Translations under genes and position numbers: made by a program | Source: Laetmonice hystrix | Lineage: Eukaryota | DNA length: 64,000 nucleotides | Direction: 5' to 3' | Assembly (NCBI GenBank): GCA_965235115.1 | Contig: OZ249436.1 | Span: forward strand, 14,386,001-14,450,000 | Notes under the pieces: generated by a model | Databases searched by the model: none | What the model saw: only the letters and a program-made list of their open reading frames with translations | Told to the model about the DNA's origin: nothing | Shown here: in pieces, positions 29,801-36,748 of the stretch | Numbering within the stretch: the stretch's first letter is position 1 | Layout of the letters: each line of letters starts with the position of its first letter

Positions 29801-30980
29801 ATAAGCTTGCAATACAGCTGTATTTTTTTTTAGTTTGCCCATGTACTTTCCATTTTGCCATGTACGTGGTACTGGTAAGTATATTTCAACATGTCTTGCC
29901 AGGGAAAGCACTATAACTCTGCACAGACATATCTTACCAAAATGGAATGAACAAATCATGCATGGTGTTTGGGTGTGAGGTACCGGCAGCTATTTTTTAA
30001 ACATACTGAGGCTGCTAAATTGGGCTGGGAGACATAATGTCCTGTGCCACTGTCACTGACATCATCTAAACCAACTCTAACAAAGTCTAATTTACTGTCT
30101 GATTCAGTCTTATCATGGCCTGGTACCAATGTACTGAATGAAGACTGTTCAGCATATTTTATACTAGTCTGCAGAAGATGGTATGACTTTGCTGTCATGA
30201 CACGCCAGTCAGGACGTGGCATGCACAATGATGTCACCATGATACGTGTACATGTCCAATACTTATCCATGATTATCTCTAAACCCTTCAGGGGATGGAT
30301 GCCTCTGGGTACTGGCAGTGACCCAGTCAAGCCATTGCCCCTCCAAGGTCAGGTGTACAAGTTTGAAACGAATCCAGCCATTACATACTGATAAATTATC
30401 CTTGAATCACAACTAAGTTACATTAACCAAATAGCAGCTGATAAACAGTGCCATGCTACCTCCAATTTATTTTATGACTTCCCTGATCATTCTTAACTTC
30501 ACCTTAATTGCTAATCATGATTTTTAACTTATATAATATGAATTCTCAGTGCAGTTGGTTGTCATCAAGCTTGTACTTCACATGTGCTGGATATGGGAAG
30601 ATGGAAAACCTTGTTCTCAATCCTCTTCTCTATGATTCATGAAAGTATCCCACATACTAACAGCTTGAACGACACACATCCCCACAAAGGTCAATCCTCT
30701 TTTTTTGTCAAATGGGGCACTGCATTGTTTTGCCATTTTACCTTCATTTTTAAAATTAAATTATCACTAGAGGGACTCTGCATTCTTTTTTTTTTTTTTT
30801 TTTTTTTTGTTGTTTAAATTCTTTATTTCATCATTTCAAAGTACATTATAACAGTGGTAAGAGAAGAAGCCAATAAGGGCTTATATATTCTCGCATCAAA
30901 TAAGGTTTTTAACATAGGACGGAAATATAGATACAACTATATAGCAACATATATACAAAGTTTGTTGGTAAAGATCAAAT

Positions 30981-33900
30981 TTATAAATTCAAAATATAAT
31001 ATTCTTTTAACTGTTTGGCATATGTGTGAATGGAACAGTTGATATTAATGTTGTTGAAAAAAGAATTATAAATTTTTGGTCCCTGTATGGCAATAGAATT
31101 TTCAAAAGTGGAACATGATGATTTAGGAACTTTAAAAAAATATCGCTGTCTGGTGACTTGGGCTTCGTTTCTTTCAAATAGGTCGTCTATGACATTAGGA
31201 ACTTTTCCATGGTGTACTTTATGCATGAGAAGGGCACATCTAAAAGAATAGAGTTGGTTAATAGGAAGAATCTTTAATTTTTTAAAGAGATATAAAGAAG
31301 GTGATCTACTTGGGGATAGAGTTATGGACCTAATACATCTCTTTTGAAGCTTAATAACAGATTGTAGGTGACATTTGCATGTAGATCCCCATACTGTGAT
31401 CCCGTTTATGAGATAACTTTGTACCAAGGCATAGTAAATTGATAATAGAGAATGCTGGCTTATGCTCCTGCGTATTTTTTGTATGACACCGCATGATTTT
31501 GCTATTTTATTTGATATATAGTTTAAATGGTCCATCCATGAAAGTTTTTCGTCTATTATATAACCAAGAAATTTGTATGTTCTAACTCGCTCAATCGGAA
31601 TACCGTTAATATTGAGAGAAGGACAGTTTTCACGGATTTTCTTCTTGGAGAATATCATGTATTTTGACTTTTTAATGTTTATAGATAATTTATTAGCATT
31701 AAGCCAGTCATATATTTTTTCTAACTCTCTATTTGCTTGATTAATAATACCATCTAGTGTCTTTCCTCGAAGAAGTCCACTTGTGTCATCCGCATATAAG
31801 ATTGGCATTAGTAAATTAGAAATATGCATAATGTCATTAATATAAATTAGGAACAGGAGGGGTCCAAGAATTGAGCCTTGAGGCACACCAGTGTTTAATT
31901 TTAAGGATGCGGACTTGTTACTATTGAAGATTATTGTTTGGTCCCTATCTTTTAAATAATTAGCAAACCACTGAAGTGCCGAACCCCTGATTCCATAATG
32001 GTTTAACTTATTGAGAAGTATATCAAAATTTACGGTGTCAAAGGCTTTGGAAAAATCTAGGAATATACCAATGGCAATATTATTTTGATCGAAGGCTTTT
32101 GTTATTATATCATTTAGGGTTATCAATGCTAATTCTGTTGAGTGGTTGGGACGAAAGCCATATTGATATGTATATAAAACATTATGCTTTTGAAGGAAAT
32201 TATAGAGTCTTTTATGCATAAGCTTTTCAAATATTTTGGATATGATAGGGAGAATCGATATGGGTCTGTAGTTTGTGAATAGATGAGGATCATCTGCTTT
32301 ATATAATGGTTTACATCTAGCCGTTTTGATCTCTGATGGGATAATTCCAGTTTCAAAAGATAAATTAATGATATGACATATGATCGGTATGATTAGATTT
32401 TGAATTCTTTTGATAATTTTCAGCGTATAACCATCCATACCTGGAGCAGTGTTTTTGAGATTACTTATAGTTCTTAGTACCTCTTGATGATCTGTAGGGA
32501 TTATAAATATTGAGTGCGTATTAGGGGACTTGAGATAATGCATATAAGTACCTTGTGAACGTGGAATTTTATCTGCTAGGCAAGGACCTACATTTACAAA
32601 AAATTGATTAAAGCAGTCAGCTATTTTCTTGTCCTCATATATCATCTCATCATTCAAAAGGAAATAATTCGGATACTCATCTGAAGTTTCAAGTCCCATA
32701 ATCTCTTTAATAACATTCCAGTAACGTTTAGGATCTTTGTTTTGCCTTTCAATTTTATTATCATAGTAATCGTTCTTTGCTCTCCACAATTTCTTAGTAA
32801 GTTTTTTCTTAGCTTCTTTGTATTTTACATTATTTATCTGAGACGGTACCCTAATTGACTTAGTGTACAACCAATTCTTATATTTTATTTCTTTCTTTAG
32901 TTCCGTTGATATCCAGGGAAGCCTGTTCATATAGGTTTTCTTTAATTCAACAATTGGAAATGACTTTTGAAAATTTTTATCAATTAAGTTGTGAAGTGAT
33001 GAGTAAGCACTCTGAGTGTCCGACATAAGCAGAATCTGTGTCCAATCTTCTTCATCACAATATGCTTTAAACTTAGTAATATTTTGTTCAGTAAATTTCC
33101 TTATATATTTGACACTTTCCTTTGTAACGATTGAGGGAATATATATATTAGCAATTATAGTATAATGATCAGAAATGTCTGTAGGTAAAATGAAGGACTC
33201 ATGTTTCACTGTTTGTTCATTAGTAAATATGTTGTCTATGATGGTAGCAGTTGTCGGGGTGACTCTAGTTGGTTTCGTTATTAAAGGTAGGAGTGTATAA
33301 GACGCCATTAAATCAATAAACATTCGGACGGTCTTGCTTTTGGTGGCCTGCAAAAGGTCAATGTTAAAGTCACCCGCAGTATAACATAGTAGCTGATCCA
33401 TTTGCATACTGTCATACACCTGTGTGACCTTCGCGAAAAAGTTATCGAGGTCACCATTCGGGGGTCTATATACCGCTCCGATAATAAGATCTTTGTGATA
33501 ATTAATTTGTTGTTTTTTCACCTTAATGAAAAGAAATTCATAATCCACATTCATGATATTTAACTTTTTGATTATGTTAAATGTTAAGGTATTTTTAACA
33601 AAAATAGAGACTCCACCGCCTTTTTTCCTTGTGCGGAAATTATGAACACCCTTAAAACCCGGAAGCTTATATATGTCAACATTAATCTCATTAAACCATG
33701 TTTCAGTCAGTATTATAAAACACATCTTCGATAACATAGGATTGATAAATTCAATAAAGGCATCATAATTTCGTGGCAGACTTCTGATATTCAAAAGAGT
33801 TATGTTTAGGTGACCGTCTAATAACTGGTTTACATCATTATCGGGCAACGCATAATCACACATGTTGCATCCGTTGTTATATATGTTCAAGTCGGGATCA

Positions 33901-34130
33901 ATTGCACAATTTTCGTAAAATATTTCATTCTCGTTTTCAATTATAGACAAGTTCATTTCAGTTTCATTAAGCATAATGGTAGATTCATCGGTGCAGGAAT
34001 TCCTTGCAAACAATTCAATAAATTCATTTTCGTCAAGTTGTATAAACGGTGGTACATAGTCAGAATCATTTAGTGCGTCTGCGAGATGTATATTTGTGGT
34101 TAGTAAATCAGACCGTGGCATTATTTCCAA
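30981..34130 (-). CDS. LINE ORF2: AP endonuclease plus reverse transcriptase (1049 aa as called; first ATG at 34121)
   Basis: APE motifs LNIRSL, LTETW, GGGVSIFV, YRPP, GDFNIDL, PTRVT..TIIDNIF and SDH. RT motifs APGMDG, NYRPISILPIISKIFEK, QYGFR..HSTELAL, FLDFSKAFDTV, GVPQGSILGPLLFLIYIND and YADD. No stops or frameshifts. Confidence 0.96.
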   Translation of the reverse strand: MEIMPRSDLLTTNIHLADALNDSDYVPPFIQLDENEFIELFARNSCTDESTIMLNETEMNLSIIENENEIFYENCAIDPDLNIYNNGCNMCDYALPDNDVNQLLDGHLNITLLNIRSLPRNYDAFIEFINPMLSKMCFIILTETWFNEINVDIYKLPGFKGVHNFRTRKKGGGVSIFVKNTLTFNIIKKLNIMNVDYEFLFIKVKKQQINYHKDLIIGAVYRPPNGDLDNFFAKVTQVYDSMQMDQLLCYTAGDFNIDLLQATKSKTVRMFIDLMASYTLLPLITKPTRVTPTTATIIDNIFTNEQTVKHESFILPTDISDHYTIIANIYIPSIVTKESVKYIRKFTEQNITKFKAYCDEEDWTQILLMSDTQSAYSSLHNLIDKNFQKSFPIVELKKTYMNRLPWISTELKKEIKYKNWLYTKSIRVPSQINNVKYKEAKKKLTKKLWRAKNDYYDNKIERQNKDPKRYWNVIKEIMGLETSDEYPNYFLLNDEMIYEDKKIADCFNQFFVNVGPCLADKIPRSQGTYMHYLKSPNTHSIFIIPTDHQEVLRTISNLKNTAPGMDGYTLKIIKRIQNLIIPIICHIINLSFETGIIPSEIKTARCKPLYKADDPHLFTNYRPISILPIISKIFEKLMHKRLYNFLQKHNVLYTYQYGFRPNHSTELALITLNDIITKAFDQNNIAIGIFLDFSKAFDTVNFDILLNKLNHYGIRGSALQWFANYLKDRDQTIIFNSNKSASLKLNTGVPQGSILGPLLFLIYINDIMHISNLLMPILYADDTSGLLRGKTLDGIINQANRELEKIYDWLNANKLSINIKKSKYMIFSKKKIRENCPSLNINGIPIERVRTYKFLGYIIDEKLSWMDHLNYISNKIAKSCGVIQKIRRSISQHSLLSIYYALVQSYLINGITVWGSTCKCHLQSVIKLQKRCIRSITLSPSRSPSLYLFKKLKILPINQLYSFRCALLMHKVHHGKVPNVIDDLFERNEAQVTRQRYFFKVPKSSCSTFENSIAIQGPKIYNSFFNNININCSIHTYAKQLKEYYILNL

Positions 34131-34952
34131 ACCACAAGCTTCGGTCTATATTCAGTGTATCTGTATCGTGCAGACTGAGCTGTATTATTACCATAACGGT
34201 CACCACATGAAACTTTACAATACACACATGAAACTTTACAATGCACACACACATTGTATGATGTACCAGCACAACTTCATCTTGCATATTTACTTCACAT
34301 TGCAAATAGATCAGTCTCATTACAAAAGTGTACCAGATAGAAGTAATCAGATTATCCACATCACACACATAAAAGGAAAACATGTTTTTCTTAGTCGTTA
34401 ACAGTGTCAAGGTGTACCAAACAAAAGAAAACAACTCGTGCAATAACATGTACACATACAATGAAAACGTGTTTGTAAACCAGGAGGAGCGTTAACGTGC
34501 AAGCAATAATGTAGGGCACCAGCGATCGGTCAGTCATGGTCACTGAGCACACAGTGAGCAAGTCGCTCCCTCGCCCCATGGACGCCGCCCACTGCCCTGG
34601 TCGCGTGCTGTACCTGGCACTGCTGCGAGCAGGGGGAGCGCGGAGCGTCCACTACACGCAGGAAACAGCGCCCCCGGACGCCCGCCCGCCCGCGAGACCC
34701 CTCTATACATTCATCGAACCTTATGAAAAATAAAGCAACTAGACCAATTTTAAGTGTATAACATATACATCGAATATTTCACACCTGTACTGAAGGCATA
34801 CCTTAACAATTACAGCAGTAAGTTTACTACATAGGTATGTAGCCTACATGAGGTAGTTGCACCAGGGGAAGGATCCGTGATTTCGGGAAACATGACCAGT
34901 ATATGAGAGCAGATTATATATGATAATCCAAGACGACGAGTATAATAGTTGC

Positions 34953-36284
34953 TTATGAAAGGTTCTCCCTAATATTCATTAACATTTTCCCTAACCGATT
35001 TTCACCGCTCCATGTGTTGTATCTGAGTTCACTCGATGTGAGAGTGGCACCTGCGCCCCAGAATCTGTCACGTGTTGCCTCCACCAGCAGTTTGCCCCCC
35101 GTACTCTTCAGCTTCTCCCGAAGGGATAGGTCATGGTCAAATTTGATGCAGAGTGCCCGCTTCATCACACCTTCCTTATGCCTGTTCCAGTTAGCATCTA
35201 GGGGTAGGTGAATGTGGTCACCCATGGCTTTAATTTTGAGTGGATCAGTTTCTTTCATGATATTTCGCGCTACATCCTGTCTGCCAGCTACATCTGCCTT
35301 TTTTGCCTGAAAATATTGTTCCACAGATGAAAACTGACGTCCATCTTCAATGATCGTGCAAGGGAACATGTTACTGAGGAATGAATGGTGACTATAAAAA
35401 CCAATAGTATCATCGTTCACTTGCACAGTTCTGGCAGCTTCCAGATTGAACTGTTTGGGGACATTTTGGAGCGTTTCGTGCGTATATGTAGCTTCGTTAA
35501 TGATGACTTTGTCCCCCTGTAGTTTAACGCGAGCCTTCTTGCTTTTAGCTAGGAGGTAGACAGCTCTAATTTCTGCACGTTGGCGCTTTATTTCTTGGGG
35601 TAGGTCCTCATTTATATATAGGCCCCTGGGTTTATTTCTGAGTTCACGGTAGGCGAGCAAGACTGCGTCTCTCTGTGAATGAGCAATGAATCGCGCTAGT
35701 ACTGGCCTGGGCCTACTATTTATAGCCCTCCCATATCTGTGCACCTTGTCAAGGTGTGCTGCATCTACTCGTATGCCACATTTTTCGTACAAACAAGATA
35801 TAAACTTTTCTTTAATTCTCTCGCTGTCCTCTTCATTAAGGCCATCTAGCACAAGGTTATGCCTTCTTGAGTAAAGTTCCTGTTGGACATGTTTGGCCTT
35901 TAGTTGGTTCACCTGAAGGGATAGGTCATGTTTGGCTTTTTGTTCTACTTCAAGTGCATGAGTAAGCGCAGATATTTCCTCTTTTTGATCCCGGAGGTCT
36001 TCTTTTAGTTTTTTTACTTCGTTATTGGAATATTCCAGTGCAGCTTGCATTTTCGTACATTCATTGTTAATACATTCAAGTGATGTCTTGATATTTGCGA
36101 CGTCATTTGGAAGGCCTTTCAATTGGCTCAGGCTACTCACCACAAAGGCCTGGTATTCCTCAGGTGTTAGGTCCGGAGATGTCGGTGCCGGGGTAGCTGT
36201 GTCAGCCTTGTCGTCGAAATCTACGACTTGTACCGGGGGTGTGCTTTTCGACGATCTTAGCGACTTATTAGACTTATTAGACAT
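34953..36284 (-). CDS. LINE ORF1 (coiled coil, RRM, CTD) fused to a C-terminal NADAR/YbiA (DUF1768)-like domain
   Basis: Heptad-rich region at about aa 45-135, then RRHNLVLDGLNE, VHRYG..RPRPVLARF and LYINEDLP, typical of L1/CR1-type ORF1p. Residues 293-443 (35408-34956) carry FYS..FLSN, SVEQYFQAKK, W...K..VM..A...KF, L..T....LVEA..DRFWG and GENRLGKMLM.IRE, the NADAR signature. Confidence 0.9.
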   Translation of the reverse strand: MSNKSNKSLRSSKSTPPVQVVDFDDKADTATPAPTSPDLTPEEYQAFVVSSLSQLKGLPNDVANIKTSLECINNECTKMQAALEYSNNEVKKLKEDLRDQKEEISALTHALEVEQKAKHDLSLQVNQLKAKHVQQELYSRRHNLVLDGLNEEDSERIKEKFISCLYEKCGIRVDAAHLDKVHRYGRAINSRPRPVLARFIAHSQRDAVLLAYRELRNKPRGLYINEDLPQEIKRQRAEIRAVYLLAKSKKARVKLQGDKVIINEATYTHETLQNVPKQFNLEAARTVQVNDDTIGFYSHHSFLSNMFPCTIIEDGRQFSSVEQYFQAKKADVAGRQDVARNIMKETDPLKIKAMGDHIHLPLDANWNRHKEGVMKRALCIKFDHDLSLREKLKSTGGKLLVEATRDRFWGAGATLTSSELRYNTWSGENRLGKMLMNIRENLS

Positions 36285-36748
36285 GTTTCATAGAACCAGA
36301 CTATCCACAAAGTCGAGCAACGTATATTCCAGGTGATGCACAGAAAAATTGTATGATTCACTGGGTCCCTTCAGGCAAGAATGAGGTAAAACACCGCTCC
36401 GTGGTTCACACACACACGTCTACATGTCCGCCATATTGAACTTCGGTAGTACATGTACATAGTTAAGGTAGTACATGTAGAAAAGCCCCTTTAGCTGTGG
36501 TGCAAGATCCCTTGGCCTTAGCCAAACAAACCTGTTTTAACATTTTATCCATGCCTGAGAGGGGGCACTGTCCACTGCCTTGACCCTCATTTTCTACCCA
36601 AAATGAAAGAAAACTGTCCCTTTTCGTTTACAAAAAACAGGGTGTCAAGTGCCAAAGACCCTAAAAAAATAGGAAAATAGGATTTTGCTGTGGCAAAAAA
36701 TAGGAATAAAATAGGAAAATCAAACAGAAAATATATAGAAATATATGG

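Follow-up and report, generated by a model that had tools for sequence, protein, structure and literature searches.

The window, that is, the whole stretch of 64,000 nucleotides from contig OZ249436.1 of Laetmonice hystrix that we analyzed, contains a LINE on its minus strand (30786..36440). The element has two reading frames: ORF1 encodes a predicted L1-type RNA-binding protein (ORF1p) that is continued in frame by a NADAR (YbiA-type) domain, and ORF2 encodes an AP-endonuclease and a reverse transcriptase. Its features, in window coordinates and in the order in which they would be transcribed, are:

30786..36440, minus strand: whole LINE, ~5.65 kb, from the 5′ end to the last nucleotide of the poly(A) tail
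36285..36440, minus strand: 5′ UTR, ~156 nt, from the 5′ boundary shared with copy L031 to the ORF1 ATG
34953..36284, minus strand: ORF1, 443 aa plus TAA stop; predicted L1-type ORF1p fused to NADAR
35868..36164, minus strand: long helix and predicted coiled coil, ORF1p aa 41–139 (helices 41–56 and 58–139 in the AlphaFold2 model)
35430..35867, minus strand: predicted RRM and C-terminal domain (CTD), ORF1p aa 140–285 (profile matches and structural alignment)
34956..35429, minus strand: NADAR domain (YbiA-type), ORF1p aa 286–443 (Pfam PF08719 and fold match to 8BAU)
35319..35321, minus strand: codon of E322, aligned with E43 of the Phytophthora nicotianae NADAR
35298..35300, minus strand: codon of K329, aligned with K50, the phosphate-binding Lys
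35079..35081, minus strand: codon of E402, aligned with E125, the subfamily-defining Glu of YbiA-type NADARs
34122..34952, minus strand: spacer between ORF1 and ORF2, 831 nt beyond the ORF1 stop
34506..34731, minus strand: GC-rich island inside the spacer, reaching 74% GC per 100 nt
30981..34121, minus strand: ORF2, 1046 aa and a stop codon; AP-endonuclease at aa 111–319, reverse transcriptase at aa 616–856
30809..30980, minus strand: 3′ UTR; an AATAAA signal can be read off the sequence at 30828..30823
30786..30808, minus strand: poly(A) tail, 23 A

With both of its reading frames open, the locus is a non-LTR retrotransposon that was inserted recently. Its 5′ boundary was placed at 36440, where similarity to a 98% copy (L031) begins; the frame of ORF1 is unbroken from ATG to TAA (36284..34953), and the AP-endonuclease/reverse transcriptase ORF2, the AATAAA signal, and the 23-nt poly(A) tail are features of an APE-type LINE. 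Two full-length copies are flanked by different sequences, in which no convincing target-site duplication was found (possible identity of only 3–4 nt). Two Rfam matches in the element (E 0.2–0.7) are far under the gathering scores, so no credible Rfam family was found there. ORF1 is contained in three sequencing runs, all from one study and of unrecorded type; no RNA dataset is listed as containing it. The spacer is longer here (831 nt) than in 11 other families (284–592 nt); its GC-rich island occurs at only four places in the genome, each a copy of the family of the window LINE, and has a predicted fold energy of −94.8 kcal/mol, calculated without a shuffle control.

As the earlier note had anticipated, an APE-RT ORF2 follows the fusion: ORF2 matches RVT_1 (9.9e-36) and Exo_endo_phos (3.4e-7) in Pfam, as do 13 of 13 other ORF2s that were scanned, and the closest solved proteins are human L1 ORF2p (~1e-17) and R2 (~1e-13). 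None of 14 ORF2s, 947–1097 aa in length, matches zf-RVT or RNase H; the 3′ tails across families are poly(A) or short microsatellites; and in two families the N-terminus of ORF2 gives PHD matches that are weak (under the Pfam cut-off) and that we liken to L2 subgroup 5 as described in the available portion of PMC4120745. From these indirect ORF2 and 3′-end features, compared with the descriptions in that source, a CR1/L2 assignment is plausible, with Tx1 as the alternative.

The body of ORF1p is of the L1 type (Type II), that is, a coiled coil, one RRM, and a CTD, as judged from sequence profiles and the predicted fold. The profile of 28 aligned family members matches human L1 ORF1p (2YKP, E 4.2e-12), the mouse/human RRM-CTD (2LDY, 2.6e-8), and the RRM (2W7A, 1.5e-6) among solved structures. 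In the AlphaFold2 model (mean pLDDT 87.5), residues 96–287 superpose on the L1 ORF1p trimer structures 2YKO/2YKP with Z 10.4–10.8, the match starting at residue 96–100, and residues 139–227 superpose on the L1 RRM 2W7A with Z 10.0. The "normal ORF1 layout" of the earlier note is thus borne out, by profile and fold only: Pfam Transposase_22 (PF02994) does not match the window ORF1p at E ≤ 1, nor does it appear in the list of the 25 families that the 28 aligned members hit most frequently. The N-terminus is disordered. The helical region (aa 41–139) is predicted with pLDDT ~77–94 per 10-residue block, and coiled-coil-type Pfam matches in ORF1p are weak; from the long helix and the homology, the coiled coil probably forms trimers as in L1 ORF1p.

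The identity of the C-terminal part and its in-frame fusion to ORF1 are confirmed both by profile and by fold. Residues 298–442 match Pfam NADAR (PF08719) with E 4e-35 and 121.9 bits (cut-off 35.1), covering positions 4–162 of the 163 in the profile, and 28 of the 28 aligned family members match the same family. In sequence searches, the NADAR part identifies 8BAU (E 1.3e-16) and E. coli YbiA (2B3W, E 4.4e-14). Model residues 284–443 superpose on 8BAU with Z 19.6 (rmsd 2.3 Å over 157 residues), and superposition on YbiA gives Z 16.7; the corresponding Foldseek E values are 3.7e-11 and 1.5e-9. The predicted model has the YbiA fold, that is, a helical core with small flanking sheets.

The three motifs quoted in the earlier note (SVEQYFQAKK, VEATRDRFWG, and GENRLG) are all present in the translation, and its emphasis on the Glu and Lys of the first is upheld. 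The Asp that it stressed in VEATRDRFWG is not the main residue there: the catalytic residue that defines the subfamily is a Glu, E402. By alignment with 8BAU, the Phytophthora nicotianae NADAR described in the available text of PMC11543638, E322 is the equivalent of E43, K329 of K50, and E402 of E125 (PMC11543638; for the subfamily Glu also PMC11125620, in part). Published mutagenesis ties these three Glu/Lys/Glu positions to hydrolysis of guanine-ADP-ribose (ADPr) and showed that E43 and K50 (E88 and K95 in the E. coli C7 NADAR) are needed for it. The subfamily-defining position is occupied by Glu in the YbiA type, by Asp in DarT1-linked NADARs, and by His in phage NADARs (PMC11543638 and PMC11125620, as far as available); because it is Glu here, the window domain is placed in the YbiA subfamily. 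Membership in the DarT1-NADAR (DarTG1) antitoxins was considered and rejected: the residue is Glu instead of Asp, and the neighboring gene is the APE-RT ORF2 instead of DarT1. By analogy, the NADAR of ORF1 may nonetheless work like a DarT1-linked eraser from outside that family.

These residues are retained well beyond the window. Both E322 and E402 are Glu in 27 of 27 local sequences and in 100 and 99, respectively, of 100 public representatives fused to ORF1; the K329 position is Lys in 22, Arg in four, and Cys in one of the local sequences (n = 27), and Lys in 86 and Arg in 10 of the public ones; W409 is kept in all 27 local sequences. The complete triad (E-K/R-E) is present in 95 of the 100 ORF1-fused public representatives (five are without it), whereas of 54 domains in multi-NADAR proteins only 13 have it.

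The fusion is common to at least 100 public protein clusters and, in this genome, to many LINE families that have diverged deeply from one another. A genome search with ORF1 gave 927 first-look candidates, 95 of which were scored; all 95 have E ≤ 8.2e-57, with identities from 100% down to 31%. Most of them (87/95) extend to query aa 440 or further and so cover the end of NADAR, and 80 are without a stop codon. An ORF2-type frame of at least 250 aa lies downstream on the same strand in all 20 loci sampled across the identity range; in 14 of these 20, ORF2 is one uninterrupted frame that reaches 900 aa or more. The NADAR-bearing ORF1 is paired with two ORF2 lineages or more that have diverged deeply (the window group, and the group of loci L037, L049, and L047). 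Among the 150 best NADAR matches in public sequences (representatives of 50%-identity clusters), 100 have the ORF1 body directly upstream of NADAR; no further Pfam domain was found in 12 longer fused proteins (533–912 aa).

Comparison of dN/dS across copies argues for constraint on the NADAR part: between families, omega is 0.10–0.13 with dN ~0.26 in the seven pairs with computable dS, although 19 of 31 pairs show saturation of dS and the seven that can be used represent no more than about two independent comparisons of lineages. Within one family, comparisons with copy L028 give omega 0.76–0.80 in the NADAR part, as expected for decay after insertion; individual copies, therefore, do degrade. 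That the fusion is an accident of the window copy, that is, an exon captured from the host or a read-through by chance, devoid of function, has next to no probability and is refuted by these observations together: of the 95 genomic matches, which go down to 31% identity, 87 have the fusion, as do all 28 aligned members and 100 of the 150 public representatives that match best; the active site is conserved, and omega between families is ~0.1. The fusion is very probably real, maintained by selection, and catalytically competent. The number of captures is a separate matter: in a FastTree phylogeny of 196 NADAR domains, the label "fused" needs 24 changes, nine of them forced by supported branches, but the tree is poorly resolved (73 of 190 inner branches are open) and short "single" entries may be fragments of fused proteins, so we claim neither one capture nor several.

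What the domain would act on is read across solely from other NADARs. NADARs, including eukaryotic and YbiA-type members, hydrolyze guanine-N2-ADP-ribose in DNA (PMC11543638 and PMC11125620, available sections); they act also on RNA (PMC11833690, available sections) and on cytidine-ADPr (PMC12945103, available sections), and YbiA-type enzymes also use riboflavin-pathway intermediates (PMC11125620). Our preferred reading is that each ORF1p molecule coating the RNA of the element would carry an active base-ADP-ribose glycohydrolase that removes ADP-ribose from guanine, and possibly from cytosine, in the LINE RNA, the nascent cDNA, or the nicked single-stranded target DNA. Such removal would undo a base-ADP-ribosylating restriction imposed by the host. 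The mechanism as a whole, a ribonucleoprotein (RNP)-tethered eraser of base ADP-ribose that counters nucleic-acid ADP-ribosylation, has in our judgment about an even chance of being correct; the specific counter-defense mechanism fits the published biochemistry of NADARs, and we put it a shade below even.

The fusion of NADAR to an RNA-binding protein could also reflect RNA processing or repair, with NADAR handling ADPr derivatives or marks that arise in processing of the RNA intermediate of the element. The available text of PMC12477816 proposes the same for elements of oyster and Ectocarpus; that of PMC9503650 ties NADAR to RNA-repair contexts and low-molecular-weight ADPr derivatives; such a role had been suggested earlier for the NADARs of RNA viruses; and SNA-3 of C. 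elegans, with three NADAR domains, acts in trans-splicing (PMC11125620, in part). However, NADARs are reported to be inactive on ADPr at RNA phosphate ends, the product class of Tpt1/KptA-type enzymes (PMC11833690, in part), and the triad is kept in the LINE domains but mostly lost in the nearest multi-NADAR proteins. This difference points to catalysis on a steadily selected substrate, and we regard a role in RNA processing as unlikely, though credible. A module that merely binds ADP-ribose, NAD, or nucleic acid by its NADAR fold, or that serves RNP assembly, could be likened to the many domains of multi-NADAR proteins that are without the triad, but pure binding would not require the Glu pair to be invariant (27/27), the Lys to be K/R in 26 of 27, or the triad to be kept in 95 of 100; a non-catalytic role is thus very unlikely.

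Target-primed reverse transcription makes nicks, and nicks activate PARPs; the domain might then strip PARP-laid mono- or poly-ADP-ribose from ORF1p, ORF2p, or the chromatin at the integration nick, in analogy with the macrodomains of RNA viruses. That animal RNA viruses have Macro or NADAR, rarely both (PMC9503650, available text), is in line with such a role in protein de-ADP-ribosylation. Against it, the reported activities of NADARs are all on nucleobases and none is on protein-linked ADP-ribose (in the available parts of PMC11543638, PMC11125620, PMC11833690, and PMC12945103), and we consider it quite unlikely. The Glu at the subfamily-defining position would also suit an enzyme that, like E. 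coli YbiA, is an N-glycosidase of metabolites and acts on riboflavin intermediates or small ribosyl compounds without a link to nucleic acids. We see no rationale for hundreds of retrotransposon copies to keep a metabolite-repair enzyme on a protein that coats RNA, and YbiA-type proteins are themselves reported to remove ADPr from G and C (PMC11125620 and PMC12945103, in part); this explanation is scarcely credible.

Returning to removal of ADP-ribose from bases, a host partner can be proposed. In the available parts of the literature cited here, the only eukaryotic writers of base ADPr that are named are the CARP-1/pierisin-type transferases, and the link to bivalve CARP-1 as a host factor is circumstantial. 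Searches of this genome with the Pfam ART families PF01375, PF03496, and PF01129 gave no candidate writer, but neither did the control genomes, so this result carries no weight for or against a host writer. One can envisage an arms race in which such LINEs, together with RNA viruses that carry NADAR and share their invertebrate hosts, are pitted against CARP-1/pierisin-type nucleobase ADP-ribosyltransferases: the host would ADP-ribosylate guanine or cytosine in parasite RNA, cDNA, and nicked target DNA as an innate restriction, and the retrotransposon would escape by means of an RNA-coating ORF1p that carries the eraser. We offer this scenario as a speculation that is more probably wrong than right by a wide measure. 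If it were true, CARP-1-type enzymes, so far viewed as toxins, would gain a role in genome defense, and base ADP-ribosylation would be a eukaryotic anti-transposon mechanism.

To our knowledge, few LINE ORF1 proteins carry accessory enzymes, and little is understood of what these do. According to the available text of PMC11833690, no hydrolase family other than NADAR is reported to remove ADP-ribose from guanine in RNA; in DNA, NADARs clear both guanine and cytosine marks (PMC11543638 and PMC12945103). The presence of a conserved fusion with an intact triad, in hundreds of copies and on an RNA-coating protein, hints strongly that base ADP-ribosylation has a bearing on retrotransposition in some animals, and comparison of the wild type with Glu/Lys mutants provides a simple experimental handle on the fusion.

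The earlier note knew of no described NADAR-ORF1 fusion; this no longer holds. PMC12477816 (2025) already mentions, in its available text, that, in several LINE families of Crassostrea gigas classed as "Tx1" in Repbase, the ORF1s appear to include a YbiA-family NADAR; a curated ORF1-NADAR family therefore exists, and the novelty is lower than first thought. Our search of the available literature on NADAR/YbiA/DUF1768 in LINEs and transposons gave PMC12477816 alone; the available text of PMC9503650 contains neither "retrotranspos" nor "retroelement". The oyster elements share with the window LINE an invertebrate ORF1 with a YbiA-type NADAR. Their account, as available, consists of two sentences and one supplementary alignment, without copy numbers, active site, selection, or structure; what is new here relative to this passing mention in print is the scale, the conservation of the active site, the selection test, and the structural model, as well as the finding that the fusion accompanies at least two deeply diverged ORF2 lineages. 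The oyster elements are labeled Tx1, and the ORF2 and 3′-end features of the elements here fit the CR1/L2 type; the two are set side by side by description and may be one group or two.

A second retrotransposon-borne NADAR is described in the same source: the Ectocarpus Gypsy LTR retrotransposons of lineage IV have the domain at the N-terminus of Pol, and its nearest relatives are reported to be bacterial (PMC12477816, available text). It, too, is of the YbiA type and conserved within its lineage, but the element is an LTR retrotransposon, the host is a brown alga, and the domain is carried on Pol instead of on an RNA-binding ORF1p. The proteins of known structure, 8BAU and 2B3W, have the same fold, 35–38% identity over the aligned part, and the equivalent Glu/Lys/Glu; the P. 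nicotianae NADAR and E. coli YbiA are stand-alone proteins (168–189 aa), whereas the domain of the window LINE makes up the C-terminal third of a protein that would form an RNP. The ORF1s of the CR1/L2/Jockey superfamily acquire accessory modules (esterase, PHD, CCHC) that are exchanged modularly (PMC4120745, as available). The window LINE resembles them in joining an extra module to a predicted Type II ORF1 that is swapped between ORF2 lineages (as with loci L037 and L049 here); NADAR is not among the accessory domains named in the available portion of that survey.

The closest functional parallels may be found among viruses. Phage NADARs act against DarTG1 (PMC11825919, available text), and the polyproteins of invertebrate RNA viruses contain Macro or NADAR domains, with NADAR in picornaviruses of annelids and bivalves (PMC9503650, available text). 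In both cases, as would be the case here, a genetic parasite carries an ADP-ribose eraser that is embedded in, or delivered with, its replication machinery. The phage case differs in that the host writer enzyme is established and the residue at the subfamily position is His, compared with Glu in the window NADAR. By our preferred reading, ORF1-NADAR would be the LINE counterpart of viral macrodomains, of the NADARs in RNA-virus polyproteins, and of the phage NADARs that neutralize DarT1.

The LINE on the minus strand at window 30786..36440 contains the following features:

36284..34953, minus strand: ORF1, 443 aa from ATG to TAA, an open frame read in the sequence
34506-34731, minus strand: GC-rich island of 226 nt, up to 74% GC, within the ORF1-ORF2 spacer
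34121..30981, minus strand: ORF2, 1046 aa, with Exo_endo_phos (AP-endonuclease, 3.4e-7) and RVT_1 (reverse transcriptase, 9.9e-36)
30808..30786, minus strand: poly(A) of 23 A, terminating a 3′ UTR that bears an AATAAA signal

Residues 298–442 of ORF1 match the Pfam family NADAR (PF08719) with an E-value of 4e-35 and 121.9 bits (the curated cut-off is 35.1 bits), and the match covers profile positions 4–162 of 163; matches to solved NADARs are obtained from sequence alone (Phytophthora nicotianae 8BAU, 1.3e-16; E. coli YbiA 2B3W, 4.4e-14). We modeled ORF1 with AlphaFold2 using an alignment of 28 relatives (A1) as input; the model has a mean pLDDT of 87.5 and a pTM of 0.68, with disorder confined to residues 1–37. 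Residues 284–443 of the model superpose on 8BAU with Z 19.6 (rmsd 2.3 Å, 157 residues, 35% identity) and on YbiA with Z 16.7; Foldseek with the ORF1 model gives E-values of 3.7e-11 (8BAU) and 1.5e-9 (YbiA). The match is far beyond chance, and the identity of the domain and its in-frame fusion to ORF1 are established.

Upstream of NADAR, across its N-terminal two thirds, ORF1 is an L1-type ORF1p. Transposase_22 is absent from the Pfam output for the window ORF1, even at E ≤ 1; the A1 profile matches the human L1 ORF1p trimer (2YKP/2YKO, 4.2e-12, profile positions 88–243), the RRM-CTD solution structure (2LDY, 2.6e-8), and the RRM (2W7A, 1.5e-6). The L1 ORF1p trimer chains align to model residues 96–287 (Z 10.4–10.8), and the model contains, in order, a long helix (residues 58–139), an RRM-like α/β unit, a second small domain, and NADAR, with high confidence through the junction between the ORF1p body and NADAR. 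The profile matches, the fold alignment, and this order bear out the layout that the earlier note had read from the sequence (coiled coil, RRM, CTD, then NADAR). An ORF1 of this layout is Type II in the scheme quoted in PMC4120745, a type reported from the L1, CR1, L2, and R1 clades.

The ORF1-NADAR fusion is shared across the family. When the 443-aa ORF1 was searched against all six frames of the 627-Mb assembly, 927 first-look candidates were obtained; 95 were scored, all with E ≤ 8.2e-57 and with identities from 100% down to 31%. The NADAR end is present (that is, query residue 440 or beyond is reached) in 87 of the 95 and 80 are stop-free, although the scored matches are the best-matching part of the candidates, which biases these counts to intact copies. 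We fetched 8.5–9 kb around each of 20 matches picked over the whole identity range: at least one same-strand ORF of at least 250 aa lies 3′ of ORF1-NADAR in all 20 loci, and 14 of them have one ORF2 that reaches 900 aa or more. RVT_1 and Exo_endo_phos occur in all 13 of the scanned ORF2s and Exo_endo_phos_2 in 12; RNase H and zf-RVT occur in none of the 13. The linkage to APE-RT, for which the earlier note had proposed a genome search, is established, and the fusion is not restricted to the single copy that the note had considered as an outcome against a functional system.

In PMC11543638, residues E43, K50, and E125 of the Phytophthora NADAR correspond to E88, K95, and D171 of the E. coli C7 NADAR, and mutants at the latter positions lost guanine de-ADP-ribosylation and toxin rescue wholly or in part. 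A Glu at the last position is what defines the YbiA subfamily; DarT1-linked NADARs carry Asp there, and phage NADARs carry His (PMC11125620). Alignment to solved NADARs identifies E322, K329, and E402 as the equivalents in the window ORF1. For a wider sample, we compared the NADAR part alone, without a profile, with each of 1.84 billion cluster representatives; 13,454 matches were obtained at E ≤ 1e-3. The best 150 were examined, and an HMM built from aa 135-285 of A1 places the ORF1 body directly upstream of NADAR in 100 of them.

Residues at active-site positions in 27 distinct local ORF1 proteins (400 aa or longer) and in 100 ORF1-fused public representatives
E322: local 27/27; public 100/100
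K329: local K 22, R 4, C 1; public K 86, R 10, other 4
E402: local 27/27; public 99/100
D406: local 25/27
W409: local 27/27

The full triad (K or R at the second position) is present in 95 of the 100 public representatives and in 27 of 30 single-domain rows, whereas it is present in only 13 of 54 domains of multi-NADAR proteins; its retention in the LINE domains and its predominant loss in multi-NADAR proteins argue that LINE-borne NADARs are retained as enzymes. The multi-NADAR proteins among the best matches to the LINE NADAR (public representatives P0206, P0207, P0208, P0211, and P0217) are very large predicted proteins with 3–7 NADAR domains, spaced at 642 aa in the 4240-aa P0206; they may be authentic genes of the host, or tandem repeats wrongly predicted as proteins.

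The dN/dS comparison that the earlier note had proposed was made by the Nei-Gojobori method on 31 local ORF1 gene pairs (50–97% amino acid identity). In the NADAR part, dS is saturated in 19 of the 31 pairs; seven between-family pairs give ω values of 0.10–0.13 (dN ~0.26, dS ~2.0–2.6), which are rough because of the high dS and represent about two independent comparisons. Three within-family pairs with the copy L028 give ω values of 0.76–0.80; because the L028 match ends at residue 426, these are consistent with a dead copy in decay. Of the two remaining pairs, one, near-identical, has ω 0.18, and the other has dS = 0. The ω values and the invariance of the catalytic residues down to 31% identity show purifying selection on the NADAR domain along active lineages.

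Aligned with L031, a 98% copy, the window element begins at 36440 and has a 5′ UTR of 156 nt; the closest solved proteins to its ORF2 are human L1 ORF2p (~1e-17) and R2 proteins (~1e-13). The flanks of two full-length copies gave no convincing sign of a target-site duplication, nor did the copies share an insertion site. The family is small and young, with three ORF1 copies in the genome at 98–100% identity: both ORFs are open in the window copy, the ORF2 frame of L031 stops early (884 aa), and L032 is 5′-truncated inside ORF1. At L032 (G000:C20:5636811-5643649), a diverged ORF1-NADAR copy (40% identity, 2 stops) is located on the opposite strand ~4.5 kb from the family's 99% copy; the copies may be clustered or nested. 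No other ORF of at least 200 aa (ATG starts, standard code) occurs anywhere in the 64-kb window besides the two of the LINE. The ORF1-ORF2 spacer is 831 nt in the window element vs 284–592 nt in 11 other families, whose spacers have no counterpart of the GC-rich island; genome-wide, 4 places carry the island (98–100% identity), all in copies of the window family. The raw fold energy predicted for it is strong (−94.8 kcal/mol); it might have been captured as a fragment, or it might form a structure that aids ORF2 translation.

Two or more ORF2 lineages carry the fusion. Pairwise identity is 38–56% among most ORF2s and falls to 27–32% between this first group and a second one (loci L037, L049, and L047). 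The ORF2s of L037 (1103-5912) and L049 (2756-7383) are 96% identical, whereas their ORF1-NADARs are 35% identical, and the L037 ORF1 is 42–48% identical to most first-group ORF1s; this looks like a recent swap of the whole ORF1 module across LINE lineages, an exchange of the kind termed reticulate evolution of ORF1 in PMC4120745. In all 12 elements compared (window plus 11 families, L035-L049), G+C is higher in ORF1 than in its own ORF2 (0.43–0.46 vs 0.30–0.36), as is GC3 (0.42–0.49 vs 0.26–0.36); differing translational demands on the two frames may be responsible.

The ORF2s (947–1097 aa) contain APE and RT only. The 3′ ends are poly(A) in six inspected families and short microsatellites, namely (CAA)n, (AAT)n, (ATT)n, (CTTCAA)n, or (CCA)n in others, with an AATAAA-like signal preceding the tail in all inspected families. 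Two loci, L048 (2334-5624) and L050 (2620-5460), have a Cys-rich ORF2 N-terminus with weak PHD matches (E 0.005–0.008, below the Pfam cut-off); a PHD after the ORF1 stop has been described for L2 subgroup 5 (PMC4120745). ORF2 size and domains, tails, and the weak PHD fit a CR1/L2 label better than Tx1, although they are not proof; for reference, the Repbase LINEs of C. gigas are 14 L1-Tx1, 12 CR1-Zenon, 27 RTE-X, two CR1, and one R2 (PMC10294476). The elements described here may be the same as the ‘Tx1’ families of PMC12477816. Tails differ among the related families L033, L035, L036, L039, L040, L042, and L048, which suggests that the reverse transcriptase recognizes 3′ ends in a family-specific way. 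Immediately after the L037 poly(A) comes a long tandem array of AGACCAAG/AGAGCAAG-like units, and after the L040 tail a ~41-nt unit repeated at least four times; target-site preference or chance may account for these repeats.

Bacterial, phage, and eukaryotic NADARs strip ADP-ribose from guanine N2 in ssDNA (PMC11543638). NADARs act on RNA as well (PMC11833690), and cytidine is likewise cleared of ADP-ribose by NADAR and YbiA-type enzymes, a sponge enzyme among them (PMC12945103). From these assays and the anatomy of ORF1, we infer that each ORF1p on the LINE RNP carries an eraser of base-linked ADP-ribose; this eraser would act catalytically on the element's RNA, cDNA, or nicked target DNA, and erasure would protect retrotransposition from a host base-ADP-ribosylating activity. 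Three Pfam ART families yielded no candidate for a host writer in this genome, with the controls equally silent. As to the identity of the presumed host writer, the known eukaryotic guanine-N2-ADPr writers are pierisins and CARP-1, with CARP-1 homologues ‘mainly distributed among the Bivalvia’ (PMC12945103).

The main rival to an RNP-borne eraser is a role in RNA processing, suggested for the LINE NADAR in PMC12477816 and weakened by the inactivity of NADAR on phosphate-end ADPr (PMC11833690). Antagonism of protein ADP-ribosylation is without biochemical precedent for NADAR in the literature covered. Conservation of the triad speaks against a non-catalytic module, and there would be no reason to maintain a metabolite glycosidase, in hundreds of copies, on a protein that coats RNA. 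Accidental fusion is refuted by recurrence, both in the scored genomic matches (87/95) and, as the ORF1 body, in 100 of the best 150 public representatives.

The finding is real and biologically attractive. The earlier note was wrong to consider the fusion undescribed: PMC12477816 (Genome Biology 2025, on Ectocarpus transposable elements) names it in a two-sentence mention, for ORF1 proteins of several Repbase ‘Tx1’ LINE families of Crassostrea gigas in which a YbiA-family NADAR appears to be present, with a Fig. S2 legend that agrees on a role in processing RNA intermediates, and curated ORF1-NADAR LINE families therefore exist. The paper also reports NADAR in Ectocarpus Gypsy Pol. Beyond it, we found nothing relevant in the literature searched on NADAR/YbiA/DUF1768/PF08719 with LINE, ORF1, or transposons. 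A survey of NAD/ADPr systems in viruses (PMC9503650) lists nidoviruses, hepe-like viruses, and annelid/bivalve picornaviruses as carrying NADAR in their polyproteins and makes no mention of retroelements. For a barely described fusion, this analysis supplies the scale, the conservation of the active site, a test of selection, a modeled structure, and linkage to two ORF2 lineages; the fusion is of a known kind, not a new kind, and its function is directly testable.
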